Assembly (NCBI GenBank): GCA_963719035.1
Contig: CAVRAO010000002.1
Span: 426,846 to 490,845 of the forward strand
Length of the DNA: 64,000 nucleotides
Direction of reading: 5' to 3'
DNA from: Methanobacteriota archaeon
GTDB lineage: Archaea > Halobacteriota > Bog-38 > Methanoflorentales > Methanoflorentaceae
Positions 9,581 through 60,132 of this stretch are shown here, in pieces; within the stretch, counting starts at the first letter, position 1, and each line of letters begins with the position of its first letter. Both the position numbers and the translations under genes were made by a program. Under the pieces are notes generated by a model that saw only the letters and a list, made by a program, of their open reading frames with translations, had not been told where the DNA came from and made no database searches.

Positions 9581-9763
9581 CTCCGCATCTCTAATGGAGA
9601 GTCCCCCTCTAGTTTGTGCCAGCCAGTACTTCAGACGAAAACATGGCGCCTATAGTGAATAAGCCTAAAAGCTTGTTTTTTAGCCTCTGTCTGAGCTTAA
9701 CGGCGTCATCCTTCGACTCAAAATATTTATAGAGTAACCTAGTATATAAATGTGAATTTCGAT

Positions 9764-9860
9764 GCCTCAGTGGCTAAGCCTGGTATAGCGCGTCCTTGGT
9801 ACGTTTCTACAATCGAACACAGAAAGGACGAGGTCGCGGATTCGAATTCCGCCTGAGGCT
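9764..9860 (+). tRNA. tRNA-Thr (anticodon GGT) with ~23-nt intron at canonical 37/38 position
   Basis: Manual fold: acceptor GCCTCAG/CTGAGGC, D-stem GCTA/TAGC, anticodon stem CGTCC/GGACG with loop TTGGTA. Intron CGTTTCTACAATCGAACACAGAA precedes nt38; T-arm GCGGA-TTCGAAT-TCCGC. Confidence 0.7.
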
Positions 9861-32535: not shown

Positions 32536-32544
32536 CGCATTTAC
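32473..32544. repeat. 72-bp direct repeat, copy 1 (3' end of RecJ-like gene)
   Basis: Identical to 35548..35619 (gaagggactgaaacagagttcctcaagcatctgaaccaattggttggactgcagctttcgtaacgcatttac). Confidence 0.95.
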
Positions 32545-33117
32545 TTGCTTTTTTGAGCTTTCTGCTATGTTTTCCTGTAACTCATTTGAATCTGTACCGC
32601 TGCTGAGACCACAACAAGAAAAGCAAGTGCACCATCGTGAACCGTTTGATAAATGCGCGTTGAAAGTCCAGCAAGATTTGAGAAAGAGTGTGGTAAGCGG
32701 ATTGTGGGATAATCTGTAACCTGCTTTTGCGTGATGGAGCGATATCTTGCTGCTGTGAATCTCCAATAACTCGTGTTTGGGCAATGCAGCCTCAGCGAAA
32801 AGCTCTGAGTAATGTTCACCCACTAACATAATAGAGAACGAAGCCGATGCTAGTCACTTAAGCGTTGTGATTAGCCGCAGTGGACAAAGTTCGGCGGCAA
32901 CACGGTGACATAATTCAGTGGGATCAATCAAACCGAGCGTACATTATGACGCATGGCGTGAGTGGAATAGATTGAAAGCACTACAAGCATCCGCTGCCGG
33001 AGAACGTGTACGATGTGTATCTGCGGTATTGGGGGGACGTGCGGTTCTAGCATCCGAGAGAGCTAACGCGCCGATATTGTGGTAACTTTATTAGGGGCAA
33101 ATGTAAACGTGAGTATC

Positions 33118-33898
33118 TTACAGTGCAAACTTCTCTTCGTCTGACAAACTGCCTGCTAGCTCGCTAAAAAGTTCGTTTCTAATCAGATCCTCTTCTCCCC
33201 CCAACTCATGATAGAACTCGTAAATGAAATTTGATGATTCTGTTTCCCGTTTCTCGTTATTAGCCCGTTGACGCCTCATCCAGTCAATAGATCCTTTTCT
33301 TAGTTTTTCTATATCAAGCGCGTAAATTCCGTCATATAATCTTTCAATGTAAATACCGTGCATGTAAATCGTGAATAGCCTCGCCTTGATCTTCCGGTAG
33401 TGCTCTACCTCCCGCTGCTTCCGAAAAGTCCCTCGCTCCCGCTGCTCGCAAATCAATCTGCTTTAATAACTCCTGTATAGCTCGATAAAAAGCCTCTATA
33501 GCATATGCGTCTTCAAGTTCATAGAAGCGGTTCGGGTTTGTGCGAGTGTAATCATAAACGTCTGTGCTGACATCCTCAGATACTCTCGTCTTTAGTTCGT
33601 CCCAATTTGTCCAAAAGAACTTCTTAACGGTCTGCTCCGACGTGGGTCGATCTTGAGCCACAATGGCGAGAATAATAACACGAACCATCCAGCCAATCTC
33701 ATTGTAGAGTGCGTTTCTCAGCGCTTCTTTTTCTGTTTCGCGTATTCTTTTTTGACGTCTCGTCTCAAGAAGTGTTGCACCTAAAAAAGCTACAAGTATA
33801 GAACCAGCCAAAGCTAGAATCGGTCCAAAAAATGTTATTGTCTGTGCATCAATTTGCCGATCACGCTGCAATTCACTCCTTTTTTCGATTCGCTTCAC
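33118..33898 (-). pseudogene. hypothetical membrane-anchored protein split in two frames (33344..33898 + 33118..33456)
   Basis: N-terminal TM then soluble domain; frame switch near 33440. Confidence 0.3.
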
Positions 33899-34625
33899 AC
33901 AATCATTGAGGTAAGCGTGTCAACTATATACTTACGATCGATAGTTGATGACGGTTGAATCGTGAATCGGTTCCATTGCCACGCTCGCGCCGTACAGCCC
34001 ACTATAGACAGCGATACTATCACGGCAATCAATATAATGGCGAAGAACTTTTTTTCCATACAAATGCCTTCTTTGACTTAAAATCTTAAACATACCGATA
34101 GGAGCGAGCACGTTTAAATTTTCGCATTTAAAGCTGCGAATTAAGCCGCTATCATCCAGACGCAGAAAGACGAGTAATCTTACAAATAAGTCTATAGCCG
34201 ATCAATTGTAGTCCTATGATGCTGAGGCCGGTAGTAGTTTTAGGTTAAAACAAATCGAATCTTCATGACCGTGGCCTGCTTGAGGCCATTACCCGAAAGA
34301 GTGAAATGACAAAACAATATTCAAGCAATGATTAGTTCTTTTTCCAAGTCCGTACTTTCACTCTCTCGTAAAGAGGTCACACTCCGAGGTAAACTCTAGC
34401 GGACACGTTCGGCGTCTCGTACATCCTAAACATAATGGTATAATATAATCAGCAACGCACTTGTCAAACTCAGTGCAAGGGCAGTTTGCAGATCGCGGCT
34501 TGCCTCCGTGAATCGGACAGTCCAAACCCAAGCCATAATCAACCTCGCTCATGCTCAGTCCTCCCTTATTTTCATCCAATACCCAGCATCCTACCGCTGT
34601 TGCCGTAACTGGCTTTAATAAAAGT

Positions 34626-35139
34626 CTAAAGCTTCCCAAAGGCTACCCCTTGGTATGTCCAGCCGCATTTAGTGACCGCCTCCTGCAGCGGTCCCTTGAT
34701 CTCGCGCGTATCGAAACGATATTTGTACACCTGGCCTGGTTCTAATTCTTCCGTAAAGGCATATGCCGTGCCGAACTCAACCTTTTGCATCTGACCTTTG
34801 AAAGCAGTCGCAGACAGCGAAAGACTCGGCACCCCCGCAGACCATCAGACACAGGTACTCGCGATCCGAAGCACGCACGCTGTGGTTCATCTCATCGAGT
34901 TTCATGTAGATCTTGAAAACCTTGGTTAGGCCGGCTTTAGCAAAGATTTCGTACCACTGGGCGTCGACTATCTTCCATTCCGCAATCAGGTCAACGCCTT
35001 CGCTAGTGCCGTCTATGATCCGGTAGGGTGCGCTGGCACGGTTTAAACTCAAGAGCGCAGCACGCACCTGTGAATCCGGCAAGACTGTTATACCTGGCTG
35101 TGGTCGCTTGGTAGATGAAAGCCTATCTAAGAACCCCAT
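34626..35139 (-). pseudogene. hypothetical protein split in two frames (34777..35139 + 34626..34832)
   Basis: Overlapping ORFs in different frames that read as one ~185-aa protein. Confidence 0.3.
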
Positions 35140-35142
35140 TGT

Positions 35143-35586
35143 TTACCTCCAAAAATAATCTGTGTTGTTGTATCTTAGCTTTATAATGCTCACACTTAGC
35201 GAGTTGAGGAGTAGCCCTTCTTTTCGGTGCGCGACATATTGATCGAGTTCATCTTTAGTAAAAGAGTGAGGGTTATTCGGTTCAACGGGTTGTCGTTGTT
35301 GTTGCAGCTGCAGCCATCCCTCCAACGCTTCAACATTCCTTCTTTGCAGATCCCGCTGTTCTGCTTCGTGCTTGTATGCCTCAAGACCCTGCTTGATAAC
35401 GATATCCTGCAAAGATGTGGATGCGATTTTTCTTTTTTCTGCATCCGTCAGCGTGCCAGAGTTGTGCAACTTTTCAGCAGAGTTGTGCAACTTCTTGCCT
35501 TTAGACCGGATGTTATCCGTTATAATTTTCGCGTCCGATTGTAAAAAGAAGGGACTGAAACAGAGTTCCTCAAGCATCTGAACCAA
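35143..35586 (-). CDS. hypothetical coiled-coil protein; 5' end lies inside DR copy 2; contains 21-bp tandem duplication (KLHNSAEKLHNS)
   Basis: ORF only. Confidence 0.3.
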   Translation of the reverse strand: MVQMLEELCFSPFFLQSDAKIITDNIRSKGKKLHNSAEKLHNSGTLTDAEKRKIASTSLQDIVIKQGLEAYKHEAEQRDLQRRNVEALEGWLQLQQQRQPVEPNNPHSFTKDELDQYVAHRKEGLLLNSLSVSIIKLRYNNTDYFWR

Positions 35587-35619
35587 TTGGTTGGACTGCA
35601 GCTTTCGTAACGCATTTAC
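35548..35619. repeat. 72-bp direct repeat, copy 2
   Basis: Perfect copy of 32473..32544. Confidence 0.95.
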
Positions 35620-36359
35620 GATGACAACAAATTGTAGTCCATATCGTGCACATCTGCTAAGCCTGAAATCGCACTTGTCTGTATCTCTATGCCACTCTCC
35701 TTGACCGCTGCCATAGAGTTTATTCCACCAATTATCGCAACTCCAACGTGGCCCCTATTCACTGGCATTTCCAACAGATCTGAGTTAGGCTCACCAACCT
35801 CCAATATCCCTTTAAACCCAATGTCCATCAACTCTGAAAGTAGATTCTCAAGCTGCGTCCCGGCTGCCATCGGCACTTCTCGGACGCTTGCCAATACCTT
35901 ACCAGATCCCGTATTGATCATCTCTAAAACAGAGGTGAGTTCCTGAGACATAAACACGTCAAGGGGGTCCAGCGTGGTCGAATCATAACGCAGAATGTCC
36001 GTGAACCTCACTGGCATCTTTTCGGTCACCTGAACTATGCCTCCACACAGTGGTTTTACTGGGATGCCTGCCTTAAGCAGCACGCCGTCAATCGTGATGC
36101 TACAAATGGTGAGTATGCCGTTGAAACCTCTTTGAATTGAGACGCCTTGAAAACTCTCGCCACCTTCGATAATTCGCACATAGGGACCAACGTTGAGTCC
36201 AGCGGCATACACGCGCTTAAATATACCCAATGCTTGTTCTAAATCACGTTCAGCAACAACCGCCGTGTTAAAAGCTATTGTGCCGTCACCCGACCGCGGG
36301 TTGAAAGTTATACCATATATAACTTCACCGATTCTTGACGACATGAATTTGAGCTTCAT
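35616..36359 (-). CDS. conserved archaeal hypothetical protein (possibly DUF128/NrpR-like regulatory domain)
   Basis: 247 aa globular; family call is a weak recollection. Confidence 0.3.
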   Translation of the reverse strand: MKLKFMSSRIGEVIYGITFNPRSGDGTIAFNTAVVAERDLEQALGIFKRVYAAGLNVGPYVRIIEGGESFQGVSIQRGFNGILTICSITIDGVLLKAGIPVKPLCGGIVQVTEKMPVRFTDILRYDSTTLDPLDVFMSQELTSVLEMINTGSGKVLASVREVPMAAGTQLENLLSELMDIGFKGILEVGEPNSDLLEMPVNRGHVGVAIIGGINSMAAVKESGIEIQTSAISGLADVHDMDYNLLSS

Positions 36360-42912: not shown

Positions 42913-43067
42913 AACTATTACAATTTAGATGCAACTAATATAAATCTAAATTCTAACGATGATGTGTTTGTCTTGTGCGTTATCTGCAAAAACGGCCAAG
43001 AAATAAACTGCACAATAACGCAACTTATGATTACTCCCCTAGGTTGTTTTATCTGAAAGGTGGCTGT

Positions 43068-44288
43068 TTAGTTCAAGTTCTTTTCAAGAAAACTGTTAAA
43101 CCGTTCAGAAGCATTATATTGGCTGAATACATATTTCATTCTCTGGGCTGCTTCATAATAGGCTGGTGCGTCAAGTATCATGCTCACAGCCTGCCTAGTT
43201 TTCTGTGAGGTGAGAGCCCCCCCGCGCAGCAATATACCGCAGCCGGCCTTTTCAATAGCGGTCATTGACAGGTACTGGTCGAAATTTGTTGGAATGCCCA
43301 AGACCGGAACACCTTCATTCAGAGCCTGGTATGCTGTGCTTGCGCCACCGCTGCAGATCACCAGCGCCGAACGCTGTGCCACACTATCACCGGGGACAAA
43401 TTCACATTTATAGACATGCTTTTGATGAATTTTTGTGTCCAATCTTCCGGCTGTGGCAGCTATGACGGTTACGGGGAGGTCTCTAAGGCCTTTTAAAATT
43501 GCTGGTAGCAACTTCACATTTCCAGATGAACCCATGTTTACATAAATCAGGGGACGGGATAAATCAATATCATTCCACCATACAGGCGGCTCTATATCTG
43601 GTGACCATAGAATCGGGCCAAGAAATATGTGCGTGTCGGGCTTATTCTTAAGCGGTATAAGCTCGATCGGATCGGGGTAGAGGGTATAATTCCCCCAAGT
43701 AAGCATTTCAAGCAAACTGCCAACCGGCGGCAGCTCAAACTGCTGACGTATCCGGTTGAGCGGTTGTGCAAAACGATCAAATACGGCAGGAAGTGCCTTC
43801 GGGAAATAACGTGTCGCAATTTTTTCACTCAACAGCCGCACTATGGGATGGTCAGGCATAGGAAAGGAATCACGCACTGCAAAGGGGCTCCAATATGCAT
43901 TAATTACGGGAGCATAGGGAACGTTACAGACCGGCGCACTCACTGCAAGGGAGAAACGTGCATCACCGATAATGATCTCGGGCTTAACGGACTGTATTAA
44001 CTGAATCTCTGCATCAACGTACCGCCTAAGCAGCTTTTGGGTATAAAACGACTTGCCATTTTCAGCAGATGATAAGAACGTTTTTTTATCCATCGTGAAA
44101 AGCTGCCAGTGCCGAAAGTCTGTCCGGCTGAAGATCTCAGGGTCAAAGGCTGAAGAGGCAAAATGCACTTCGTACTTCTTTTGATCAAGTGCGCGCGCCA
44201 GCACCAGGAGGCGTACCACCTGTGAGAGGGTGGTGTTCTCTACAACAAACAAAATCCGTTTTAACTGCTTCGCTTGTTCTTCTGTCAT
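43068..44288 (-). CDS. GT1-family UDP-glycosyltransferase (MGT/CrtX-like)
   Basis: 406 aa; C-terminal nucleotide-sugar motif (…HGGAST…/…GVPVLGIPTNFDQ…); adjacent to carotenoid genes. Confidence 0.75.
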   Translation of the reverse strand: MTEEQAKQLKRILFVVENTTLSQVVRLLVLARALDQKKYEVHFASSAFDPEIFSRTDFRHWQLFTMDKKTFLSSAENGKSFYTQKLLRRYVDAEIQLIQSVKPEIIIGDARFSLAVSAPVCNVPYAPVINAYWSPFAVRDSFPMPDHPIVRLLSEKIATRYFPKALPAVFDRFAQPLNRIRQQFELPPVGSLLEMLTWGNYTLYPDPIELIPLKNKPDTHIFLGPILWSPDIEPPVWWNDIDLSRPLIYVNMGSSGNVKLLPAILKGLRDLPVTVIAATAGRLDTKIHQKHVYKCEFVPGDSVAQRSALVICSGGASTAYQALNEGVPVLGIPTNFDQYLSMTAIEKAGCGILLRGGALTSQKTRQAVSMILDAPAYYEAAQRMKYVFSQYNASERFNSFLEKNLN

Positions 44289-44683
44289 ACTATATCAGCT
44301 GATAGCTCATTCCGATGATGTTGTACGTTCAATATGGTGTACCTGTGGAGGCCACGACGCGGGTTCGAATCTCGCCCGCGACCTTTTTTTTCTTTATAGG
44401 CGTCAGCTTCGCTTGCTTTTTGTAAAATAAGTGATTTTAGCTCGGCGATTTGAGATTCTAGCTGATATAAGCGATTTTCTACGTCAGGATTCTGCATAGT
44501 TGTGCAACAGTTGTCTACTACTTTATAAGCTACGACTAAGAAAGCCAACTTTCTGTCAAGAACAGTTTGATAAATTTCCGCTTTAGACCCGATCAGTTCT
44601 TGAAATTCCCGCGGCAATCGAATAATAAGATAAATGTGTGAAGGCTTCGAGCTTTGGACGCTAATTTTGTGCGTGCAGATCAT
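44285..44683 (-). CDS. ORF reading through the tRNA-derived sequence; AbrB/SpoVT-like N-terminus + coiled coil; possible Int(N) remnant of a partitioning (SSV-type) integrase
   Basis: Translation …KKGRGRDSNPRRG… is antisense of the tRNA fragment. Shares segment RLxxLESQIxxLKxLIL with the 49.5 kb locus. Confidence 0.35.
   Translation of the reverse strand: MICTHKISVQSSKPSHIYLIIRLPREFQELIGSKAEIYQTVLDRKLAFLVVAYKVVDNCCTTMQNPDVENRLYQLESQIAELKSLILQKASEADAYKEKKGRGRDSNPRRGLHRYTILNVQHHRNELSADIV
44350..44382 (+). other. orphan tRNA 3' fragment (T-arm + acceptor 3' strand + discriminator), then TTTTTTTT; att-core-like
   Basis: GCGGG-TTCGAAT-CTCGC + CCGCGAC + C; no matching 5' acceptor strand (GTCGCGG) within 100 nt upstream. 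Confidence 0.5.
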
Positions 44684-44815
44684 CTCAGCACCACACTCAG
44701 GGCACGAGACAGCGCACTTTATGTTTTCATTGTGCTCGTCCCTCTGTCATTGTTCCACCTCTTGTTAACTACTAATTAAAGCGTAGCGGAGTATAAAATA
44801 GTGTTTTAAATCCAG

Positions 44816-45301
44816 CTACCGTTGGCGGTAATCAGCAGGCACCCCCCATCTTTCTGTTACATTATACCGAGACACTGTTGACTCGAAGTGAACCCAGATG
44901 GGTGCATTATCTAACTGAGGATGCGCTGCAAAAAAAGAACTATCGCCGTAGCGTAGGGCTTCAAGAACTAAGGGCAATTCATCTTGAAAGATTTCAAATC
45001 GAAATTGAGCAGATCCAAAAACAAACCCGCCACTCACGTGACAATAGACGTGTAACGCCGGCCCTTCATCAGTGTTTTTCCACTCAGCAAGCACTTCATC
45101 TCTCATGAGCCTTGTATACCAACCACATACCTGTGATTCATTACAATCTGGGCCAATTGTCAAAAAGAGCTCGCCTGTGATATCGGAGTGGGTTAGCGTA
45201 TAACGGCGCGGGGAGATCGGATCCGTGGGTCCAATCCCAGCCACGTGTTTGACATGCAACTTTTCCGGTCGCAATCTATTCTCGCGTCTGTGCGTATCCA
45301 T
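44816..45301 (-). CDS. hypothetical protein (161 aa) within carotenoid cluster
   Basis: ORF; no domain recognised. Confidence 0.45.
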   Translation of the reverse strand: MDTHRRENRLRPEKLHVKHVAGIGPTDPISPRRYTLTHSDITGELFLTIGPDCNESQVCGWYTRLMRDEVLAEWKNTDEGPALHVYCHVSGGFVFGSAQFRFEIFQDELPLVLEALRYGDSSFFAAHPQLDNAPIWVHFESTVSRYNVTERWGVPADYRQR

Positions 45302-45934
45302 TGGTTCGCCTGCCCTTCAAATGTCCTTAAATTCCATCTCGTAGATGAATTGGGAGCCTATATCCTTATCAAAAGGGTATTGTCAAATCTTTGACGTCGT
45401 CTGTGTTCATTGATCGTGATTGTGTGCGACACCACGAAAGGTGAGGTAGACTCACTTCTTGATCCTATATTGTTGCCACACGGTCTCTCAACGTAAAGTT
45501 TATCTTTTGTTACCGTTTTTGGAGGAGTGCTTAGCTTTCACTTATAGGAGGGCAAAATGTTAGGCAAACTTCTACTAATTAAGATGCTAACGATAGCAGG
45601 GTTTGTGGTCATGCTGCTGCACGTCTTATTTTTCGTCGCCACCTTAGCGTTGCATGCCCTGTTCTTAGCTCCTCGACTTGGAAAGATAATGAAGCGTAAC
45701 TCGTCGCGGGACGCTTGTTGCTGAGCTAACCGTGCGAGGACCTGCCTCTAGGAAGAAAGAAAACCCCATCGACAGGGATGATGGCGCCTTGAACATAGCT
45801 TGCTAAGTCACTCGAGAGAAAGAGGACGACTTTTGCCGCCTCGTCAGGCGCAGCCCATCGTCCTTTGGCAAGCCGTTGGTGAAAATCATATCCACTGTTG
45901 ACAAGATCAAGCTGTACGTTTAAAATGGCACCCT

Positions 45935-46846
45935 TCACCAGAACGGGGGAAAAACTGCGGGCATCTTCAGAAGGGTAAAGACAGCAAAGGCCAGCCCGCC
46001 AAGTGCTGTGTTGACATACGGGAGATACCAGTAGAGACGGTCGATGGAAACCTCTTCGCGGAAAAGAAGTACTGCTGGAAAAAGCGGATATATGATTACT
46101 AGAAAGCTGAGCGGGTACAAGCCCGCAAGTAGGAGCACCAGCAGAGAAAATAATGTCCAAAAAGCTGTGCATAATAGGAGCGAAGAGCGCCTTCCGAGCC
46201 AGACTGCTGTCGTAGTGATCCCGGCAGCCCGGTCGTACCGGATATCCGGTATTGCGGAAAAAATGTGCATCGCCGATATATGCAAATACCCGGCGATAAC
46301 TAACAAGAGCGGGGGGGTCTGGCCTGCTGCAAGATAATAACCAAAGATTCCCGGCATGATATAGAGCATATTTGAGGAGAAATCAAGAACCGGGTGCTGC
46401 TTGAAACGGAGCGGCGGAGCAGAATAAAAATATGCAAGAAACAGAAATATAAGAAAAATCACCTGCTCGGTACGATCTTGCGTAACGAGGAGCGCCAGGG
46501 AAAAAGCAGCAAAGATAGTGAGCAGGAGCAGCGTTTTCCGGTGTTCGTTTGCTTTTAATTTGTGCTCTTTTCCCACTTTCTTGGGATTCTGCCGGTCGGT
46601 CTCCTCGTCCCAGTAATCATTGACGCCGTAGATAAACAGGTTTGCTGGGAAGAAGAAATAAAAAAGGTAGAGATAGTAGAGCGGAGAAAAAAAAATCTGC
46701 CAGTTTTCCATGCCGAGCGCGACACCCAAAACAAAGGTGCCACCGGTATAAATCCAGAATCTGAAGCGCGATATGGTAAAAGCGAGAGGGAGCAGGGATA
46801 TGGAAAGTATCCGGTTTCCCACGTTAGATTTCATACCGTGGTGCAC
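45935..46846 (-). CDS. UbiA-family prenyltransferase (lycopene-elongase/CrtEb-like by context)
   Basis: 303 aa, multi-TM; NDxxDxxxD motif (NDYWDEETD); overlaps crtB by 23 nt. Confidence 0.7.
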   Translation of the reverse strand: MHHGMKSNVGNRILSISLLPLAFTISRFRFWIYTGGTFVLGVALGMENWQIFFSPLYYLYLFYFFFPANLFIYGVNDYWDEETDRQNPKKVGKEHKLKANEHRKTLLLLTIFAAFSLALLVTQDRTEQVIFLIFLFLAYFYSAPPLRFKQHPVLDFSSNMLYIMPGIFGYYLAAGQTPPLLLVIAGYLHISAMHIFSAIPDIRYDRAAGITTTAVWLGRRSSLLLCTAFWTLFSLLVLLLAGLYPLSFLVIIYPLFPAVLLFREEVSIDRLYWYLPYVNTALGGLAFAVFTLLKMPAVFPPFW

Positions 46847-47693
46847 CCGGGAACTGAATCCTGCATAACGGGATATGCACGCTGTTGTAAAGGATTCTCA
46901 TGATAATTCGCGAGATCGAAGGGCGAACAAAAGTCCTGTAAATGACAAATGGGTCCCTTGCTATCAAAGTAGCGGTCCATTTGTACATTTCTGCAGCAGT
47001 CCTGATGGGTATCAGGTACCGGTATGGTATAAACCGGTAGCCCCGTTCCCCTTCCTCCTGCCAGCGGTAATACTGGGCGATCTGTTCCCTGATAAAGAAC
47101 CGGAACTGTTCGGGTGCGTCCCGGGCGTCTGACTCTTCCAGCCCGGAAAGACCGCACCGTCGAATATATTCTTGCGAGAAATACACCCGGCCTAATTTCA
47201 GATCTTCTGCAATGTCGCGGACGAAATTGATATACTGCATGGACCTGCCCAGCAACCGGGCATAAGGAAAGGACTTCTCGGGTAGATCAAGGATCCGTGC
47301 CATCATAAGACCTATCACCTCTGCAGAACCGTAGAGGTACTGATCGAGTTCCAGCTGCGTCTCGTACCGACTCTTGCTGAGATCAGCACGCATTGAAGAG
47401 AGGAAAGCATCAATCCACTCGCAGTCGAACTGTTTCAAGGCAGCAAGTCCTGCAAACCCGTCAATTACGACATCCCCGGTGATGCGGCCATCCGCTGCAC
47501 ACTTCCATCGATCGCAGAATGCTTTAAATTCCTGCTTCTGCTGAGGGATGCTGTCAACAAAATCGTCTGCCTGGCGGACAAAGGCATAGAGCATAAAAAC
47601 GTCCTTTCTCACTTCGGGCGGGAAAAAAAGGCTGGAATGGAAATATGTTCTACTCCCTTTTCTGAAGATCTGGTAGTGTATGGACTGCCCCAT
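46824..47693 (-). CDS. crtB: phytoene synthase (squalene/phytoene synthase family)
   Basis: 289 aa; …YAFVRQADDFVD… Asp-rich motif 1 and second DxxxD region. Confidence 0.8.
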   Translation of the reverse strand: MGQSIHYQIFRKGSRTYFHSSLFFPPEVRKDVFMLYAFVRQADDFVDSIPQQKQEFKAFCDRWKCAADGRITGDVVIDGFAGLAALKQFDCEWIDAFLSSMRADLSKSRYETQLELDQYLYGSAEVIGLMMARILDLPEKSFPYARLLGRSMQYINFVRDIAEDLKLGRVYFSQEYIRRCGLSGLEESDARDAPEQFRFFIREQIAQYYRWQEEGERGYRFIPYRYLIPIRTAAEMYKWTATLIARDPFVIYRTFVRPSISRIIMRILYNSVHIPLCRIQFPGAPRYEI

Positions 47694-47708
47694 AGTAGGA
47701 TACCTACA

Positions 47709-49202
47709 TTACTTATGGTATTTATCTGTAAGTTCAGCGGCCACTATTGTCGATGATATAATGGTCATGGGTACACCGATACCGGGGTGAGTGTAGTGGC
47801 CGGAGTAAAAGAGATTGTCGACCTTTTTGCTTTGGTGGGCAGGTCGCCATAGGGCAGTCTGGAAGAGTGTATGCGAGAGGCCCAGCGCCGTGCCCTTGTA
47901 CGCGTGATAGCGCTCTTTGAAATCATTGAGGGCAAACGCCTTTTTCACCACCACTGCATCCCGGATCCTGTCACCGGTCGAGGCTTCCAGTTTGTCCATG
48001 ATGAGGGTGTAGAACCGTTCGCGGATTTCTGGTGAATCTTCAAGCCCAGGTGCGAGAGCCACGAGGATAAACAGGGTGTCGCAGCCAGGAGGGGCAGCCG
48101 TCGGATCGGTCATCGAGGGAACATTGACGTAATAGGAGGGATTTTTTGGCCATGCGGCCTTTTTTGGGTCAAATATCTCATCGAAGTTATGCTCCCAGTT
48201 CTTATCCAGAAAGAGCGTATGGTGTGCTAAGCTCTCAAAGCGCCTGTTTACGCCCACATAAAAGACTATGGCTGAAGGGGCCATCACGCGGCGCTCCCAG
48301 TATTTCCTGTCATAGGTCCGGTACTCCGGATTGAGGAGCTCGAGTTCTGCAAACGCATAATCCGCATTCACGAGAACGATATCGGATTCATAGGTTCCTC
48401 CGGAGGTCCGGACTCCCTGTGCTTTGCCGTCTCTGACAATAATTTCCGTCACCGGTTCGTTGAACTTGAATTCTGCGCCATAGTTCTCTGCAAGATCTCT
48501 AATTACCGTTGCCACTTTCCGCATTCCCCCGACCGGATAAAAAACTCCGAGCGTAAGGTCGATGTGTGACATTATGTGGTAAAACGAAGGGGTGTTCTTA
48601 GGTGAGCCGCCTAAAAATCCGATTGAATACTCGACGATCTTTTTTGCCTCGTCACTCGTAAAGTGCTTCGAAACAAATGTGTCAAGATTCTCAAGGATGT
48701 GCATTTTCCTGCCTTCGATCAGCATGCGGCCGGAGAAGAAATCAAAAATGGATTTATAATCCCTGTAGAGCATCTCGTTGATCGAGAGGTCGTATTTTTC
48801 TTTGGCAGATGCAAGGTATTTCTTTAGTTTTTGGCCGCCACCTTGCTCAAGAGAATCAAAAAGTGCAATATTTTTATCAAGGTCAGCGGCAATGTCCAGC
48901 ACCTTGCCGTTGCCAAAATAGATTCGGTAGGAGGGGTCAAGTCGCGGTAATTCCATCAGATCGTTAGCTTTCTTTCCGAACTCCATGAAAAATTTTTCAT
49001 AAACATCCGGCATCAGGTACCAGGAAGGCCCCATATCAAATATGTACCCTTTTTCAGAATAGACACTGGCCCGTCCGCCGGGTCCTTCATTTTTCTCCAG
49101 TACAAGAACGTCGAACCCATTTTTTGCGAGCAGCGCAGCAGCTGATAGTCCCCCAAATCCTGCCCCGATAGTAATTACCTTTTTGCCGTTTTTTTCCGCC
49201 AT
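47709..49202 (-). CDS. crtI: phytoene desaturase (CrtI family)
   Basis: 497 aa; N-terminal FAD fold (…ITIGAGFGGLSAAALLAKNGFDV…), CrtI-family C-terminal signature. Confidence 0.85.
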   Translation of the reverse strand: MAEKNGKKVITIGAGFGGLSAAALLAKNGFDVLVLEKNEGPGGRASVYSEKGYIFDMGPSWYLMPDVYEKFFMEFGKKANDLMELPRLDPSYRIYFGNGKVLDIAADLDKNIALFDSLEQGGGQKLKKYLASAKEKYDLSINEMLYRDYKSIFDFFSGRMLIEGRKMHILENLDTFVSKHFTSDEAKKIVEYSIGFLGGSPKNTPSFYHIMSHIDLTLGVFYPVGGMRKVATVIRDLAENYGAEFKFNEPVTEIIVRDGKAQGVRTSGGTYESDIVLVNADYAFAELELLNPEYRTYDRKYWERRVMAPSAIVFYVGVNRRFESLAHHTLFLDKNWEHNFDEIFDPKKAAWPKNPSYYVNVPSMTDPTAAPPGCDTLFILVALAPGLEDSPEIRERFYTLIMDKLEASTGDRIRDAVVVKKAFALNDFKERYHAYKGTALGLSHTLFQTALWRPAHQSKKVDNLFYSGHYTHPGIGVPMTIISSTIVAAELTDKYHK

Positions 49203-49394
49203 GCCAAGACACCGAATCCATATCGGGGCATCCTTTTAATATAGATTTGGCAGAGAACATTTGTAATCCAGGAATAATCAGCTATCCGCAGGCAACGCAT
49301 TTTGGCGCCATTACTCGGCAAATTTGCTTAGTGGATTTGTAGACGGATAGTAAATCCTAGAAGTAGTAAAAACGTCTAAATAAGCCCTTTCGAG

Positions 49395-49532
49395 GCTCTG
49401 AATCGGGTTAAAATCCCGAACCGGGCGTTCTTTTTCAATATAAGGGTAAAAATTAATCTCTTTTTCTAAAATAAGCTTTTTTAGATCAACGATTTGAGAT
49501 TCGAGAGCGGAAAGGCGATGGTCGTAGCCTGG
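49395..49532. repeat. degenerate att-like repeat (T-arm-like + T-rich + coiled-coil-coding segment), partner of 44350..44480
   Basis: Shared anchors: taaaataag, gatttgagattc, CGGGTT-AAATC-CCG. ~70% identity by eye. Confidence 0.4.
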
Positions 49533-49535
49533 TCA

Positions 49536-49655
49536 AAACTGCACGTTAGCATACACTTCCTGTACGTCCTTATCAATAAACTGCATGTAGATTGCTGTTA
49601 TCTTTATACTAGAGTGACCCAGCACCTGCTGCACTGCCGAACGAATGACCCACAA
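49536..49655 (-). pseudogene. tyrosine-recombinase (integrase) C-terminal remnant (~40 aa)
   Basis: Translation …IRSAVQQVLGHSSIKITAIYMQF… matches the LLGHSSIxTTxIY catalytic-Tyr box; flanked by stops. Confidence 0.55.
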
Positions 49656-50129
49656 CTATAGTTCTTGCAACCCCTCAACAAACTGGCGTAGCTTGTCTTG
49701 ATAAACGCCTTTCTTGACCTCTTTTTCCTGGAGAGCAAGGATGCTTACCGGGCGTCTTTCACAGAGTGCTTCCATCTCAGCAAATAACTGCTGACTCTCA
49801 CCACCGCCATTTGTGCAAAAAAATGCTACCCGTGTGAACTTCGACTTATTGTTGGTGATGTAGGTCCGCGGAGCACTCGACAACGTGCCTGCCCAAATGG
49901 GCGTGCCGAGTATTACTAAATCGTATGACGCGGGATCACGTTTGATGTCTGTGAGCTTGGTGAGCTTCTTTGCCTTTGCGTCCCTTCCAGCCGACACAAA
50001 GCCCAGAGGCCCGCTGCGTTTTTTTGTATCAATAAGTTCTTCACTGTCGCAGTTGAGCGACTCAGCAAGCGCTTCCGCTACCTGTTTGGTCGCACCTGTT
50101 CGCGAATAAAATACCACTAAAGCCTTCAT
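49656..50129 (-). CDS. flavodoxin-like protein
   Basis: 157 aa; …VVFYSRTGATK… FMN-binding loop. Confidence 0.65.
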   Translation of the reverse strand: MKALVVFYSRTGATKQVAEALAESLNCDSEELIDTKKRSGPLGFVSAGRDAKAKKLTKLTDIKRDPASYDLVILGTPIWAGTLSSAPRTYITNNKSKFTRVAFFCTNGGGESQQLFAEMEALCERRPVSILALQEKEVKKGVYQDKLRQFVEGLQEL

Positions 50130-50220
50130 TATAAGTTCCTTCCGTAAGTTAATTCGGTTTACCGGCTTAAGGCTTTTTGCGGCAGTTCATCATTTTAATC
50201 TAGTGGATTGAAATACCCTT

Positions 50221-52095
50221 TTAACTATTTATTAAGTGCATCACTATTTTTTCAACTTCGACTGCCTTGCCATTCTTAAGATTTTTGATGCAACTATGCT
50301 GCGCTTCACGAATTTCAGCAGTAGGCTCATTAGCAATAGCCGTGAACTGAGAAACCAGCCGCTTAGCCCCGACAAAATTCCCGACACTTACCCGCCGATT
50401 AACTCCGCGGACATCTAAAACCGTCCCGTCCATACAAGGCGGGTGCTCACAATACAGACATTCAGAAGCAAATCGCATCACCTCGCGAATAGCCTCAGGC
50501 TCATCAGTAAATAGCTCAGACCTCTTAAACGGATGCGGTACAATCTCAACATAGTTGGGCATATCCTTCTTATAGGTGAATGGCTCCAAGCCGCGTTTCT
50601 TCAAAATGGCGTTGGCGGCGGTGAGGCCTGAGACGGTGACAGCGGGGGTTCCGGTGCCCATGCAGGTAGATTCGCCGCAATAGAACAAAGTGTCCCAAGG
50701 GCTTCTGATGTGCAGTCTTTTGAACATGTGTTGCCCGAGCATTTGTTTGGGGCCGGCGACGGCGCCATCATTCTTATTCGTGTAGCGCTCGATGGTGAGG
50801 GGGGAGGCTAGTTCGGCGTAGCGGACGGCTTGGCGGAAGCCGGAAAAGCGTTTTTCAATGACGTCCAGGATGCGTTGGACTTCGAGGTCTTTGCGTTGGC
50901 TGTAGGCTTCGGGGGAGAGGGATTCCCAGTTTTCGAAGGAGGGACCTATGGCGATGACGGTGTGGACGTCATCATCGCAAAGGGTTTGGTCGTCGATGCT
51001 CATGATATAAAGGGTGACTTCGCTTTCGTCGATTTGGTCGGGATTGCCGATGAGCATTTCGATAGGCAGGGTATCAGAAGGAATCACGCTTTTATCGACC
51101 GTAGTATAAAGAACGACGCTCGGGTACGTTGGAACAAGGTTCCGCGCCCATTCATTCAACGAGGGGGGGAGGTAAGAGGTGTCGATGAGTTTTCCATAGA
51201 GGTTCCAAACAGTGCCAGAGTAAATGATATCATCGCCGTAGAAGCGTTTGCCGGTCGTGATTTCGACGCCGCAGGGTTTTTCGCCGTCAAACAATATTTG
51301 GCAGACTTCGCTTTCGTAGTGAATTTCACCACCGTTTTCTTCGATACTTTTTTCGAGTTTGCCGGGCAGGAAGAGGGTGGAGCCGGCCGGGTAGTAGCTG
51401 CCGCCGAAGTGGTTGTCCACGAACATGACGGCTGCAAGAATGGCTGGGGCTTCTTCGACCGTGGCGTAGCAGTAGGTGGAGGTGAGTTTGTCGAAGAACT
51501 TGAAAATTTCAGGGTCTTTGAAATACTGCCTCAGGAGGCTTCTGGCTGATTTGTTCATATAACTCAGGAAACGTGCGTAGGAAACCGGATGGCGTAACAG
51601 GCTTTTCAGAGACTCGACTTTGTCGGTTTCGTCGGGGGAGGAGAAAACCGGATTTTCGACCATGACGTGGTGGTAAATTTCGTTGAGGTCGTAGTAGAAG
51701 CGTTTGATGTTGGCTTTTTCAGAGGGAAAAACTATGCTGAGTTCTTCAGCAAAGAGGTCAAGGTCTTCGTGAAATATGATGCGGTGGCCCTTATAGACAA
51801 CGGCGTAAAGCTGGTCGTGCTTGATGATGCGGATGGGTTCCTCCAGGCAGTTAAAAACTAAGCGGTGGGGGCTGAAGCCTTTCTCGCCGAAGCCGTAGAG
51901 CATGGCGGCGCCTTGGTCGAAAGTGGTTATGGCAGCTTGGTCAGAGGTAGCGGTGTCACGTTTGAAAACCCCGCAAGACCCGCCCGGGGTGAAAGTCTTT
52001 TCGAAGAGAAGCACTTTTTCGCCGCGTTTGGCCAGAAGGGCGGCAGCGGTTAAACCGGAGAGGCCGGAGCCGATGATGAGGGTGGTTTTGGACAC
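50221..52095 (-). CDS. CrtD/CrtI-family carotenoid desaturase-like FAD oxidoreductase with ~120-aa Cys-containing C-terminal extension
   Basis: 624 aa; N-terminal …IIGSGLSGLTAAALLAKRGEKV…; C-terminal …CLYCEHPPC…. Confidence 0.6.
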   Translation of the reverse strand: MSKTTLIIGSGLSGLTAAALLAKRGEKVLLFEKTFTPGGSCGVFKRDTATSDQAAITTFDQGAAMLYGFGEKGFSPHRLVFNCLEEPIRIIKHDQLYAVVYKGHRIIFHEDLDLFAEELSIVFPSEKANIKRFYYDLNEIYHHVMVENPVFSSPDETDKVESLKSLLRHPVSYARFLSYMNKSARSLLRQYFKDPEIFKFFDKLTSTYCYATVEEAPAILAAVMFVDNHFGGSYYPAGSTLFLPGKLEKSIEENGGEIHYESEVCQILFDGEKPCGVEITTGKRFYGDDIIYSGTVWNLYGKLIDTSYLPPSLNEWARNLVPTYPSVVLYTTVDKSVIPSDTLPIEMLIGNPDQIDESEVTLYIMSIDDQTLCDDDVHTVIAIGPSFENWESLSPEAYSQRKDLEVQRILDVIEKRFSGFRQAVRYAELASPLTIERYTNKNDGAVAGPKQMLGQHMFKRLHIRSPWDTLFYCGESTCMGTGTPAVTVSGLTAANAILKKRGLEPFTYKKDMPNYVEIVPHPFKRSELFTDEPEAIREVMRFASECLYCEHPPCMDGTVLDVRGVNRRVSVGNFVGAKRLVSQFTAIANEPTAEIREAQHSCIKNLKNGKAVEVEKIVMHLINS

Positions 52096-52370
52096 GACAT
52101 CAAATGTTCGTTTCTTATTTAGGTATTTTTTCGAAAATCCTTATCCGCCATTTTCACTTGGGAAATAGGTACTCACTGCCAATCCCACGTTGCGAATTTC
52201 AAAAGCATTCATCTCTCCAATACTTCATATATTTATCATACGCGCCGTAAGGCAAAGAGTGCTGACAACTACTCTACTCGATTCCACGAACCCCATGGTG
52301 AGGATGTACGCGCGATTGGATTTATTCCACCCCACTACATCGCCATGCTGCTCGGCACACTTCCACAGCT

Positions 52371-53228
52371 GTGCAGGTCAATCCCACGACAAGTTCAACG
52401 AATGCTAGCGCGCTCAACGCGACTCGCCTTAGCGCACCGTCCTCACAAGCTCAGAGCAACAATACTAACGCTACGCCGGCCGCAGTTATACTGAAAGTCG
52501 ATGAATCATCCACAAACGCCCCTGTGATAAGCGGAGTCCTGAGCAGCATAGCGAATGGTTTCAATTCGCAACTTACAGGTTCGACGCAAATCGTCGGCGT
52601 CGAGAACCAACAAGTTCTTTCATCGCAGTTCAAATATATCGATTTCTTTGTGCCAGGGATCATAGGCTTGACGGTCCTCACAACCGGCGTGCTTGGCACC
52701 GTTGGAACGAACACTCAGTATCGCAACAACGGAATCCTACGGAAACTCGCGACGACACCTCTCGGAAAGTCTGAGTGGATTATATCTAAAATGTTGTATC
52801 AAACTGTCGTTATATTCATTTCAGCAACCTTAATTATCGTCGTAGCCAAGCTCGTATATAACGTAACAGTAGTGCCCAATGAAGTTACCCTACTGCTCCT
52901 TTTTGTCGGCACTATATGCTTTACCGGAATTGGAATGATCATCGCGCGTTTTATAAAAGACGAGGACGCGGCAAATGCAGCAGCAAGCGCGGTCACTTTC
53001 CCAATGCTGTTCCTTGCCGGCACTTTCATCCCACTTGAAACGATGCCTGAATATCTCCAAATAGTTGCAAGGTTTCTTCCGCTTACTTATTTAAACTACG
53101 GGCTCAGAGACGCAATGATCCTCGGAGACACAGCAAGTGCATTGTATAACATGATGATAGTATTAATCGCAGGGGCCATCTTCTTTGTAATCGGCTCAAT
53201 TATAACCGATTGGCGCGAGGGCGGTTGA
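52371..53228 (+). pseudogene. ABC-2-type transporter permease, apparently 5'-truncated (C-terminal four TM helices + part of the extracellular loop)
   Basis: No N-terminal TM1; low-complexity start; no ATPase partner gene nearby. Confidence 0.45.
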
Positions 53229-57731: not shown

Positions 57732-58158
57732 CTGCCTGCTTCAACGGATTGGGGCCCAGTTTCTTAATGGTGTTGACCATATCCTGGACCACCTCTGCCC
57801 AAATGGCACCTTCTGAAGCGGATATCATTGTCATGCGCAAGCGCTCACGGTCGTAACCGTACTCTTCAATGAGCTTTCTTAGGAGCGCAACGCGACGTCG
57901 CGACTTGAAGTTGCCAGCAAGATAGTGACAGTCACCAATGTGGCAACCCGATATAAGCACGCCATCCGCTCCAACGCTCAGGGCCTTCAGCACGAACGCT
58001 GGATCGAGTCTGCCTGTGCACATGATGCGGATGACTCGTACGTTCGTCGGGTACTGCATTCTCGAGGTACCAGCGAGGTCAGCCCCCGCATAGGTGCACC
58101 AGTTACAGAGTATACCTAAGATGTTTGGTTCAAATTCCTCTGCCATTGCTATCACCAC
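57688..58158 (-). CDS. mvhD: MvhD-like subunit (F420-non-reducing hydrogenase delta / Hdr-associated)
   Basis: 156 aa; …[13 protein letters not shown]…, …CTGR…, …GCHIGDCHY…. Confidence 0.8.
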
Positions 58159-60132
58159 CCCTGGGCAAACGCTTCTATTTCACTCATAATCTGCTCATTC
58201 GTGAAGTGCTGCATCTTTATGGCGCCGCTTGGACACGCGGAACCGCACGTGCCGCAACCCTTACACTTCGCCTCATTGACGCTCGCAACAAGCTTGTCGT
58301 CAACTTGGTGCAGCTCAGTCGCGCCGTATGGGCACAGACCGATGCACGTGGCACAGCCCCCGCAGTGTTCCTGGTCTACGATAGCGTAGATCGGTTCGAG
58401 GGTGACTGATCCCCTGTGTATCGGGATTGATGCTGCTGCCGCTGCTGCCGCTGCGTGACTCACGACATCCGGAATATCTCTCGGTCCTTGGCACATCCCT
58501 GCTAAGAATACCCCATCAGTGGTCGTCGACATGGGGTTAAGCTTCGGGTGCGCTTCTAGCAAGAACCCATCCGGACTGTTAGAAAGCGTCAGAAGCGTCT
58601 TTATCTTCGATGTGCTCTCAGCGGGCACCACTGCATTTGCCAACACTACCATGTCAAGTTCCATCTCGAGGGTTTGTCCAAGGAGCGTATCCTCAGCCGT
58701 TACGGTAAGGTTCTTTGTGACCGGATCTTCGGTGATCCTCGAAACGCGACCTCGGATAAACTTGCCGCCTTCATTCTGAATGCGGTAGTAGAACTCCTCG
58801 TACGCCTTGCCAAAGGCTCGTATGTCCATGTAGAACAAGTAGGGCACACATCCCGGCATCTTCTCGATCAACTGGTGAGCGTGCTTCAAGCTGTACATGC
58901 AGCATACACGCGAGCAGTACCGGCTTAGCACCGTCCTCTTCATCCTGATCACGCGAGCCTGCGCAGAGCACAAAGCCAACGCTCTTAGGCTTCTGACCGT
59001 CAGAAGGCCTGACGACGTTTCCACCTGTCGGACCGGATGCGCTGATCAACCGTTCTAACTCGAGCCCAGTCAAAACGTTGTCGAAGACCTTATAACCCCA
59101 CTCTTCCTTGCGCTCAACGTCGTACATATCGAACCCAGTGGCGACGATAATCGTGCCCACCTTGACCGTCACGAGCTCGTCGGGCTTGTCGAAGTCAATT
59201 GCCTCAAGGTCGCCGCACGCTTCCTGGGTTTTACAGAGGTCACACTTGATACAGCTGTCCATGTCAATGGTGAACTTGAGCGGCACTGCCTGTGGGAACG
59301 GCACATAGGCCGCCTTTCGAGGCTGCAAGCCCAGGTCAAACTCGTTTGGCCGTGAAACAGGACATACCTCTTGGCATTTGCCACAGCCGTTACACTTGTC
59401 TTCGTACACATATCGCGACTTCTGGCGAATGGTAACGTCGAAGTTTCCTATGTAACCGCTTACGTCTTCGACCTCCGAGTAGGTCATCAGCTCAATATTT
59501 GGATTGCGCTCAACGTCGACCATCTTGGGTGTCAGTATACATTGCGAGCAGTCGAGTGTGGGGAACGTCTTGTCGAGACGGGACATCATGCCGCCGATGG
59601 ACGGCTCCTTCTCCACTAAATACGTCTTTATTCCCGCATCGGCAAGCTCCAGTGAGGCTTGGATGCCGGCGATACCTGCGCCGATAACGAGCGCAGCCTT
59701 TTCAACCGGCACTGTCTTTGCAGTGAGGGGCTCCAGCATTGATGCCCGCGCGACCTCCATTCTGACTACATCCTTTGCCTTTTGCATTGCCTTTTCTGGC
59801 TCTTCCATGTGAACCCACGTGTTCTGCTCTCGGATGTTCGCCATCGAAAACAGGAACTGGTTTACTCCGCCCTCTTCAGTCGCTTTCCTAAACGTAGGTT
59901 CGTGTAGCCTTGGTGAACAAGCCGCTACGACCGTCCCGTTGAGGTTGTGTTCCTTGATGGCGTCTCTGATCATGGTTTGGCCGGGCGTTGAACACACATA
60001 CGTATAATCCTCGGCGTATGCAACGTTCGGCAGCGTCTTTGCGTACTCAGCCAACGCCTTAACGTCTATGACGCCTGCGATGTTAGTACCGCAGTGACAT
60101 ACGAATACGCCGATTCTCTTCTCTTCGTCCAT
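58152..60132 (-). pseudogene. hdrA: heterodisulfide reductase subunit A, second copy, in two overlapping frames (58771..60132 + 58152..59024)
   Basis: Frame 1 carries the N-terminus through …LCAGSRD…; frame 2 carries …YCSRVCCMY… through the C-terminal ferredoxin. A +1 shift sits within ~58918-58960 (ccgg). Confidence 0.8.

Follow-up and report, generated by a model that had tools for sequence, protein, structure and literature searches.

The closest described counterpart of the genes considered here is the bacterioruberin pathway of Haloarcula japonica, which comprises CrtB, the bifunctional CrtI/CrtD enzymes C0507 and D1086, LyeJ, CrtD and CruF; the function of the bifunctional (CrtID) enzymes was shown genetically in that organism (PMC11946383), and the roles of LyeJ, CrtD and CruF in the pathway have been summarized (PMC9258230). 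Methanogens are listed as unstudied for carotenoids in a 2022 review (PMC9410494), and a survey published in the same year recognized a monophyletic archaeal group of the CrtI subfamily (CrtIb) that includes Methanobacteria and Methanomicrobia and was read as the result of lateral transfer (PMC9907078). Here we analyzed a stretch of 64,000 nucleotides from contig CAVRAO010000002.1 of a methanogen-like archaeon, referred to below as the window, which contains a carotenoid-type cassette, crtI-crtB-ubiA, within a genomic island located next to the fwd genes. We consider it fairly probable that this host, a relative of the Methanocellales, carries a mosaic island whose Methanoregula-like cassette makes a bisanhydrobacterioruberin-type C50 carotenoid.

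Every large open reading frame (ORF) between positions 43068 and 52095 is on the minus strand. The six co-directional genes that a first-pass annotation, made by reading the sequence, had reported were all found, and a Staygreen gene among them had been overlooked. Three of these genes constitute the cassette:

47709-49202, minus strand: phytoene desaturase CrtI of the haloarchaeal bifunctional CrtI/CrtD ("CrtID") type (NF058655, 675.9 bits vs a cutoff of 640)
46824-47693, minus strand: phytoene synthase, CrtB-type (PF00494, E = 5e-48)
45935-46846, minus strand: UbiA prenyltransferase of the lycopene elongase/hydratase (LyeJ-like) type (NF009516, 350 bits vs a cutoff of 205)

As the gap between crtI and crtB is 15 bp and crtB overlaps ubiA by 23 bp, the three genes look like one operon, in which ubiA probably starts at 46834. 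The view that the genes are of carotenoid type was supported by these assignments. That of crtB is backed by its conserved place between crtI and ubiA, and C40 rather than C30 specificity is assumed for the encoded synthase. The name of model NF009516 is "prenyltransferase" only, and the LyeJ label comes from the automated JGI/UniRef names (lycopene elongase/hydratase) of homologues that are 58-69% identical to the window UbiA and are present in cultured Methanobacterium formicicum, Methanoculleus taiwanensis, Methanofollis and Methanocalculus. Through this family assignment, the earlier suggestion that the carotenoid would be elongated gained support. In an independent sample, Logan contig L001 holds identical crtI-crtB genes and a partial ubiA that is 99% identical.

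Like the Haloarcula japonica pathway, the cassette combines a CrtB-type synthase, a CrtI that passes the CrtID cutoff and a UbiA with LyeJ-labelled homologues, and it would be expected to follow the same route from geranylgeranyl diphosphate (GGPP) through lycopene to a C50 carotenoid. Thus, CrtB would convert two GGPP molecules into phytoene, the CrtID-type flavoenzyme would desaturate phytoene to lycopene and later introduce the 3,4 double bonds, and the LyeJ-like UbiA would add a C5 unit and water at each end. In contrast to Haloarcula japonica, the window has neither cruF nor a separate crtD, its host is a strict anaerobe, and the genes form a tight operon in a mobile island with a GT1-family glycosyltransferase, a flavodoxin and a Staygreen homologue as neighbours. 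A cruF gene (PF04240) was found in the 64-kb window neither by tblastn nor by a search of the six-frame translation with the hidden Markov model (best E = 0.93), and therefore the predicted end product is a bisanhydrobacterioruberin-type C50 diol rather than bacterioruberin.

The spread of the cassette was analyzed by a scan with CrtI that used one genome per species and that finds close relatives only, haloarchaea not being sampled. It recovered 38 archaeal loci whose CrtI is 60-77% identical to that of the window, and the record titles allowed 33 of them to be attributed to Methanomicrobiales (including Methanoregula, Methanogenium marinum DSM 15558, Methanoculleus and Methanofollis), Methanobacteriaceae, Methanomassiliicoccales, Methanofastidiosa or Ca. 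Methanosuratincola (including two complete genomes); a few carrier records are titled only Thermoproteota, Thermococci or Methanobacteriota. The next matches after archaea, and the sole bacterial ones, were those of Flavobacteriia, at 40-43% identity. The order crtI-crtB-ubiA is kept in 35 loci, which are all those whose contig spans the three genes, and cassette homologues are present in cultured Methanobacterium, Methanoculleus, Methanofollis, Methanocalculus and Methanogenium. The window cassette thus agrees with the other methanogen cassettes in the identity and order of its three genes, whose proteins are 49-77% identical. The statement that carotenoid pathways are not part of the methanogen repertoire was overstated, and the core genes, for which bacterial or haloarchaeal best matches had been considered, match methanogens best. 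The acquisition is real but not unique, and the gene set is already known in kind, being automatically annotated in databases and noted in the phylogenetic survey mentioned above.

The genes around the cassette vary between groups. Of the 38 loci, 23 have a gene of the PF04240 family (CruF, the haloarchaeal C50 carotenoid hydratase) adjoining the cassette; this gene immediately follows ubiA in Methanomicrobiales and Methanosuratincola and immediately precedes crtI in Methanobacteriaceae. Sixteen loci have an ABC1-type kinase gene beside the cassette, four loci of Methanomicrobiales have a flavodoxin gene there, and the full order ABC1 kinase-crtI-crtB-ubiA-cruF-flavodoxin is displayed by a Methanoregula-like contig (L068). 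Unlike the Methanomicrobiales cassettes, the window copy is flanked by neither the ABC1 kinase gene nor cruF; it also differs from the other methanogen cassettes in that it resides in a Methanocellales-related host whose relatives lack it at this site and in that it is bracketed by att-like repeats.

The ABC1/UbiB-type atypical kinase gene was observed in L016, L018-L021, L025, L033 and L034 (Methanobacteriaceae) and in L002-L004, L007, L008, L024 and L068 (Methanomicrobiales). Alongside the Methanobacteriaceae cassettes, genes for an Hsp20 protein and a DUF5518 membrane protein are also conserved, and these kinase, Hsp20 and DUF5518 neighbours hint at a stress-linked regulon. In four Methanomassiliicoccales loci (L026, L027, L029 and L037) a second, divergent UbiA-family gene is present and cruF is missing, which suggests that the end chemistry may differ between methanogen orders.

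The host itself appears, from its protein sequences, to be an uncultured methanogen lineage related to Methanocellales. Its FwdA is 84-90% identical to that of uncultured "Halobacteriota archaeon" records, 62-66% to that of Methanocella, the closest among named taxa, and ~59% to that of Methanomicrobiales. In a neighbour-joining tree, constructed without support values, the window CrtI was sister to the Methanoregula/Methanomicrobiales copies, and this placement, which conflicts with the host affinity to Methanocella, fits a transfer from a Methanoregula-like donor. The CrtI proteins of L005, L006, L009 and L010 (Ca. Methanosuratincola/Thermoproteota), 70-73% identical to that of the window, nest inside the Methanomicrobiales clade, implying that the cassette has also been transferred between archaeal phyla in the same methanogenic habitat.

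With regard to the product, it could be argued that the cassette yields a colourless or reduced C40-C50 membrane isoprenoid, for example an elongated diol or a hydrocarbon of the phytoene or lycopane type, and not a pigment. Methanogens hold tail-to-tail isoprenoid hydrocarbons, the searched literature reports no pigment from the cultured carriers, and the hosts are strict anaerobes without a known electron acceptor for CrtI. However, the window CrtI scores above the cutoff of an equivalog model whose namesake is a desaturase proven to form polyenes, and its identity of 60-77% to the copies of all 38 loci suggests a conserved catalytic role. Moreover, cruF and LyeJ-type genes act on desaturated ends (PMC9258230). 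A colourless product is the alternative that survived best, and we still regard it as improbable.

The position of the cassette in the genome was analyzed by comparing the fwd locus in five related lineages whose FwdA is 88-90% identical to that of the host. The edges of the inserted DNA were placed as follows:

42946-52370, no strand: inserted segment (genomic island); blastn homology to L049/L053 ends at 42945 and resumes inside the permease
52371-53228, plus strand: N-terminally truncated ABC-2 permease at the right edge of the island, 285 amino acids corresponding to residues 125-410 of the 410-residue L049 orthologue (77% identity)

The genes of the block are absent at this locus in all five lineages, and the flanks are kept in the same order, with fwdB and fwdA (plus fwdC in two lineages) on one side and three hypothetical genes followed by DUF211, VIT1, aldolase, arginine decarboxylase and glycosylase genes on the other. 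An intact ABC-2 permease of 408-410 residues, an ATPase gene and a small gene occupy the site in two lineages; in the other three the transporter is lost. The stop of the homology at 42945 and its restart at residue 125 of the permease indicate that the block is an insertion of ~9.4 kb that took the place of ~2.2 kb, i.e. the permease N-terminus, the ABC ATPase gene and a gene of 158 amino acids. The island would thus have been inserted between fwdC and the conserved hypothetical genes, removing the 5' end of the permease gene and the ATPase gene. In agreement with this, the ATPase partner gene of the truncated permease is missing from the window, and the same truncation was observed in L063, a contig of a closely related strain. 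These results confirmed three points of the first-pass annotation, namely the lineage-specific island (here on the basis of synteny and recombination scars), the truncated permease at its edge, and the expectation that the closest genomes would lack the block and hold an intact permease, the latter in two of the five lineages. The proposed composition check, in contrast, failed to set the block apart, since no compositional mark of foreign origin was detected by tetranucleotide and GC scans: the tetranucleotide z score of the block was at most +1.6, as compared with +2.9 for the native fwd operon, and its GC content (0.46-0.49) is near the window mean.

Two further observations concern this site. 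The truncated, partnerless permease shows a ratio of nonsynonymous to synonymous divergence (dN/dS) of 0.11 at a synonymous divergence (dS) of 0.25 between the window and L063, and it may still be expressed and under selection. Among relatives L053-L058, three lineages lack fwdC directly after fwdA, and the ABC-2 permease is either a 262-bp remnant or missing; these losses suggest a rearrangement hotspot between the fwd operon and the hypothetical genes, independent of the carotenoid block.

Several scars of recombination and two gene remnants were located within the island:

44342-44488, no strand: repeat A, att-like, a degenerate copy of ~147 nt whose plus strand carries, at ~44340-44385, a part resembling a tRNA 3' end, with a T-run after it
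49386-49532, no strand: repeat B, att-like, a degenerate copy of repeat A with a tRNA-like end (found by translation and targeted alignment)
49536-49655, minus strand: tyrosine integrase remnant, C-terminal 40 codons (PF00589, E = 0.005; phrog_216, E = 2.7e-5)
44285-44683, minus strand: orf132, with an N-terminal domain that is AbrB-like by eye, fused to the coiled-coil and tRNA-derived sequence of repeat A
45726-45884, minus strand: C-terminal remnant (40 residues) of a short-chain dehydrogenase (SDR; PF13561 positions 194-233 of 236, E = 2e-7)

The two repeats are 47% identical as peptides and 83% identical over a 46-nt core, and both end on the plus strand in sequence resembling the T-arm and acceptor of a tRNA; the tRNA-like part of repeat A resembles the 3' end of a tRNA-Thr(CGT) located near the cassette of a Methanomicrobiaceae locus, L007 (79% over 38 nt). 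The minus strand between the flavodoxin gene and crtI reads '...VQQVLGHSSIKITAIYMQFIDKDVQEVY', which is the C-terminal catalytic motif of tyrosine integrases, and the remnant carries the tyrosine-recombinase C-terminal motif LGHSSIKITAIY. Past one stop codon, its frame runs into repeat B, giving a coiled-coil-like peptide and then tRNA-like sequence. The integrase remnant and the tRNA-derived repeats noticed at first reading were therefore confirmed, as a 40-codon remnant and two repeats. Repeat A constitutes the 3' half of orf132 (132 codons), which had no Pfam or PHROG match but has a paralogue at 32568-32819 (54% identity over 39 residues) and a divergent variant in L063. The SDR remnant, seen in the window only, lies downstream of ubiA, at the position of cruF in the Methanomicrobiales cassettes. 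ARAGORN and Rfam revealed no tRNA gene or further tRNA fragment in or near the block; there were no long exact repeats within 40-54 kb, no repeats at the outer edges of the island and no third copy of the repeat, and no intact relative of the integrase or of orf132 was found in the fetched loci or in viral contigs.

These features resemble those of the islands inserted at tRNA genes by tyrosine integrases (bacterial P4-type, archaeal pNOB8- and SSV-type) in the direct repeats of a tRNA 3' end, the integrase end beside one repeat, the cargo between the repeats and the absence from sister genomes. Unlike such islands, the window contains no intact tRNA gene or integrase, its repeats are only ~50-80% alike, no compositional signal is present and the site lies inside an ABC transporter operon rather than at a tRNA gene. 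The scars suggest that the island may have been assembled stepwise by site-specific recombination at a tRNA-derived att-like sequence.

A second lineage-specific insertion, of ~3.1 kb (32545-35620), was observed between recJ and nrpR, two genes that adjoin each other in relatives L057 and L058. A perfect direct repeat of 72 bp, corresponding to the recJ 3' end, borders the insertion on either side (~32473-32544 and ~35549-35620), and the paralogue of the orf132 N-terminal domain (32568-32819) is located at one of its ends. The insertion has the appearance of a small element that integrated recently and belongs to the same family as the element behind the carotenoid island, and the presence of a second element with such flanks and such a paralogue supports active integration in the host genome.

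The variability of the island between strains was revealed by a metagenome scan with the GT1 protein, which yielded six contigs at 83-97% identity. One of them, L063 (13.6 kb), is 93-94% identical to the window and includes fwdA, fwdC, the truncated permease, a gene for a CrtISO-like protein, repeat A, the GT1 gene and the left flank, and it lacks the following module:

44459-50196, no strand: strain-variable module of 5.7 kb, comprising the orf132 N-terminus, the Staygreen (SGR) gene, the SDR remnant, ubiA, crtB, crtI, repeat B, the integrase remnant and the flavodoxin gene

In L063 this module is replaced by an unrelated sequence of 677 bp that codes for the divergent variant of the orf132 N-terminal domain, and the junction at 44458 falls inside repeat A. 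The Staygreen-orf132-GT1 arrangement of the window is also present in L062 and L067, and the comparison of L063 with these two contigs and the Logan contig indicates that island forms with and without the cassette both exist in nature. Between the window and L063, dS was 0.04-0.06 for the GT1 and CrtISO-like genes of the island and 0.25-0.29 for fwdC and the permease of the flanks, which suggests that the island DNA has a more recent common ancestor than the flanks. The island has at least three modules, one of which varies between strains, in contrast to the single block first described. The window therefore provides direct evidence of cassette mobility, with the cassette present in one strain, absent from a sister that is ~93% identical, and located beside recombination scars.

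The remaining genes of the island are:

43068-44288, minus strand: GT1-family (GT-B fold) glycosyltransferase, a candidate carotenoid glycosyltransferase (PF06722, PF04101, PF00201)
44816-45301, minus strand: Staygreen (SGR, Mg-dechelatase family) homologue of the stand-alone prokaryotic type (PF12638, E = 3e-52)
49656-50129, minus strand: flavodoxin (Pfam Flavodoxin_5, _3 and _4)
50221-52095, minus strand: 624-residue flavoprotein of the CrtI/CrtISO superfamily (TIGR02730, 254 vs a cutoff of 586.9; TIGR02733, 145 vs 549.7)

The GT1 protein has the family fold and the nucleotide-sugar binding domain, and its closest solved structures are CalG1, YjiC and GtfD. It resembles CrtX-type enzymes, such as the Pantoea zeaxanthin glucosyltransferase, in its GT1/GT-B fold and in its adjacency to carotenoid genes; unlike CrtX, it matched no specific model or characterized close homologue, its best solved relatives being antibiotic and flavonoid glycosyltransferases at E = 1e-13 or weaker. 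In two contigs with relatives of the GT1 gene at 84% identity (L066 and L065), its neighbours are not those of the window: the gene follows an FA_hydroxylase fragment with CrtZ-like histidine motifs, and the other neighbour is a DUF2141 gene. The CrtZ-like neighbour gives independent, although indirect, support for a carotenoid substrate. GT1 may glycosylate the hydroxyl groups of the C50 diol; the GT1 assignment made at first was verified, and a glycosylated product is plausible only.

The flavodoxin gene co-varies with the cassette, both being absent from L063, and a distant flavodoxin gene closes the cassette in L002, L003, L008, L024 and L068. We propose, speculatively, that the flavodoxin might act as the redox partner that re-oxidizes CrtI in a cell without oxygen or quinones. 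A role of the flavodoxin as partner of the CrtISO-like enzyme was also considered and rejected, because L063 has the enzyme without the flavodoxin and the bacterial homologues of the enzyme have no flavodoxin neighbour. The Staygreen gene, placed between the ubiA and GT1 genes, is an unremarkable prokaryotic representative of its family, which is small (812 clusters at 50% identity) and whose prokaryotic homologues are already known to be widespread (PMC8531759); none of the 38 other archaeal loci has a Staygreen gene beside its cassette.

The 624-residue protein shares with the CrtISO/CrtD/RetSat branch a flavin adenine dinucleotide (FAD)-binding amine-oxidase fold over its first 500 residues. 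Its best NCBIfam match is the carotenoid isomerase model, although its scores are under half of the CrtISO and CrtD equivalog cutoffs. It differs from that branch in a Cys-rich C-terminal extension of ~120 residues with a CxxCxxxxC...C pattern, and some of its homologues show a faint precomputed match to the iron-sulfur domain PF14691. Full-length homologues are numerous (59-68% identity, 100% coverage), and the named carriers (Acetobacterium bakii, A. paludosum, Parasporobacterium, Anaerolineaceae, Dehalococcoidia and Thermotogota) are non-pigmented strict anaerobes; no crtB, crtI or ubiA gene was present near the homologues in the three gene contexts examined. The occurrence of CrtI-family oxidases in clades without phytoene synthase has been reported (PMC9907078). 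The 624-residue protein is, on these grounds, probably not a dedicated carotenoid enzyme, and we infer that it could be a bacterially acquired redox enzyme that uses low-potential carriers and acts on an unsaturated substrate; together with the Staygreen homologue, it would represent separate cargo. Its initial designation as a second CrtD/CrtI desaturase is thus not maintained, and among the six genes first assigned to the pathway the CrtISO-like and flavodoxin genes have a doubtful or unproven role.

The mosaic structure bears on the possibility that the six genes make up one carotenoid pathway, acquired horizontally as a single island from bacteria or haloarchaea. Such an origin would account for the co-directional arrangement of the genes inside one inserted segment and for the presence of GT1 and CrtI-family genes, which are typical of carotenoid clusters. 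Nevertheless, L063 has the GT1 and CrtISO-like genes without the cassette, and hence these are separable units; members of the CrtISO-like family are found in anaerobes that are not carotenogenic, where the surrounding genes are unrelated; and the core genes are nearest to methanogen copies, at 60-77% as compared with 40-43% for Flavobacteriia. Acquisition as one pathway is, accordingly, unlikely.

It could also be proposed that the block is decaying cargo without a current function, in view of the integrase and SDR remnants, the truncated permease, the missing cruF and the loss of the cassette in a strain. We consider this quite unlikely, because all seven protein genes are full-length and match their homologues from end to end, crtI-crtB is identical in another sample, and purifying selection was detected in the GT1 gene (dN/dS of 0.15-0.17) and in the CrtISO-like gene (0.25). 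An assembly or binning artefact joining the DNA of different organisms, to which the frameshifts in two genes of the window could point as signs of an error-prone assembly, is very improbable, given that the same archaeal flanks are continuous with island genes in metagenome contigs of independent origin (L062, L063, L064 and L067), that the composition of the block matches that of the window and that the truncated-permease junction is reproduced in L063.

The frameshifts in question affect an HdrA gene (58152-60132; 659 residues in relatives), split by a 1-nt insertion at ~58921, and the alanyl-tRNA synthetase (AlaRS) gene (15361-18185), broken into at least two, probably three, ORFs. They may reflect either broken essential genes or indel errors of the assembly. 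The permease truncation and the island junctions were reproduced in independent contigs.

Several observations weigh against a C50 carotenoid pathway in this host, and they were set against the evidence above. All the NCBIfam equivalogs for the synthase (CrtB, HpnC and HpnD) scored below their cutoffs, the tree that places the window CrtI carries no support values, and a cruF gene may be located elsewhere in the genome, outside the 64-kb window. CrtI-type desaturases are known to use oxygen or quinones, and no carotenoid from any methanogen was reported in the searched literature. The GT1 gene of the window is linked to carotenoids by adjacency alone, and the window flavodoxin is only ~30% identical to those of the Methanoregula-type cassettes. 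Finally, since the HdrA and AlaRS frameshifts indicate that the assembly may hold indel errors, the calls of remnants in the window only (SDR and integrase) are weakened.

The remaining genes of the window agree with a methanogen host: HdrA, methanogenesis markers 12 and 16, Mer, FwdA, FwdC and pyruvate synthase are encoded, as are HMG-CoA synthase, thiolase and HMG-CoA reductase of the mevalonate pathway. Of the context described in the first-pass annotation, the Fwd, Mer and Hdr genes, the mevalonate trio and the intron-containing tRNA were verified, whereas "Mvh" holds only for the MvhD/FlpD gene, the sole member verified (by synteny). The tRNA, at ~9763-9860 on the plus strand, was read by eye as tRNA-Thr(GGU), with GCCTCAG/CTGAGGC as its acceptor arms and a ~23-nt intron that follows the anticodon loop, and was missed by both ARAGORN and the Rfam tRNA model. 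The HdrA encoded at 1460-3826 (plus strand, 788 residues) is, as judged from the match of its C-terminal residues 659-755 to the MvhD/VhuD iron-sulfur subunit, of the HdrA-MvhD fusion type.

Beyond this host, we tentatively advance the broader idea, which we hold to be possible though doubtful, that strictly anaerobic methanogens of several orders, cultured strains included, make bacterioruberin-type C50 carotenoids, that in them a dedicated flavodoxin takes the place of oxygen or quinones in re-oxidizing CrtI, and that the cassette moves on small integrative elements recombining at tRNA-derived sites, the window representing a strain-variable state. Because cultured strains carry the same genes, the question of C50 carotenoids in methanogens can be tested now. 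Were the cassette active, C50 membrane carotenoids would be made by methanogens as well as by haloarchaea and a few actinobacteria, which would bear on the reading of isoprenoid biomarkers and would raise, for enzymology, the question of the electron acceptor used by a CrtI-type desaturase without oxygen or quinones. As C50 pigments are tied to protection against oxidative stress and to membrane stiffening, an active cassette would also bear on the oxygen tolerance of peat and soil methanogens.

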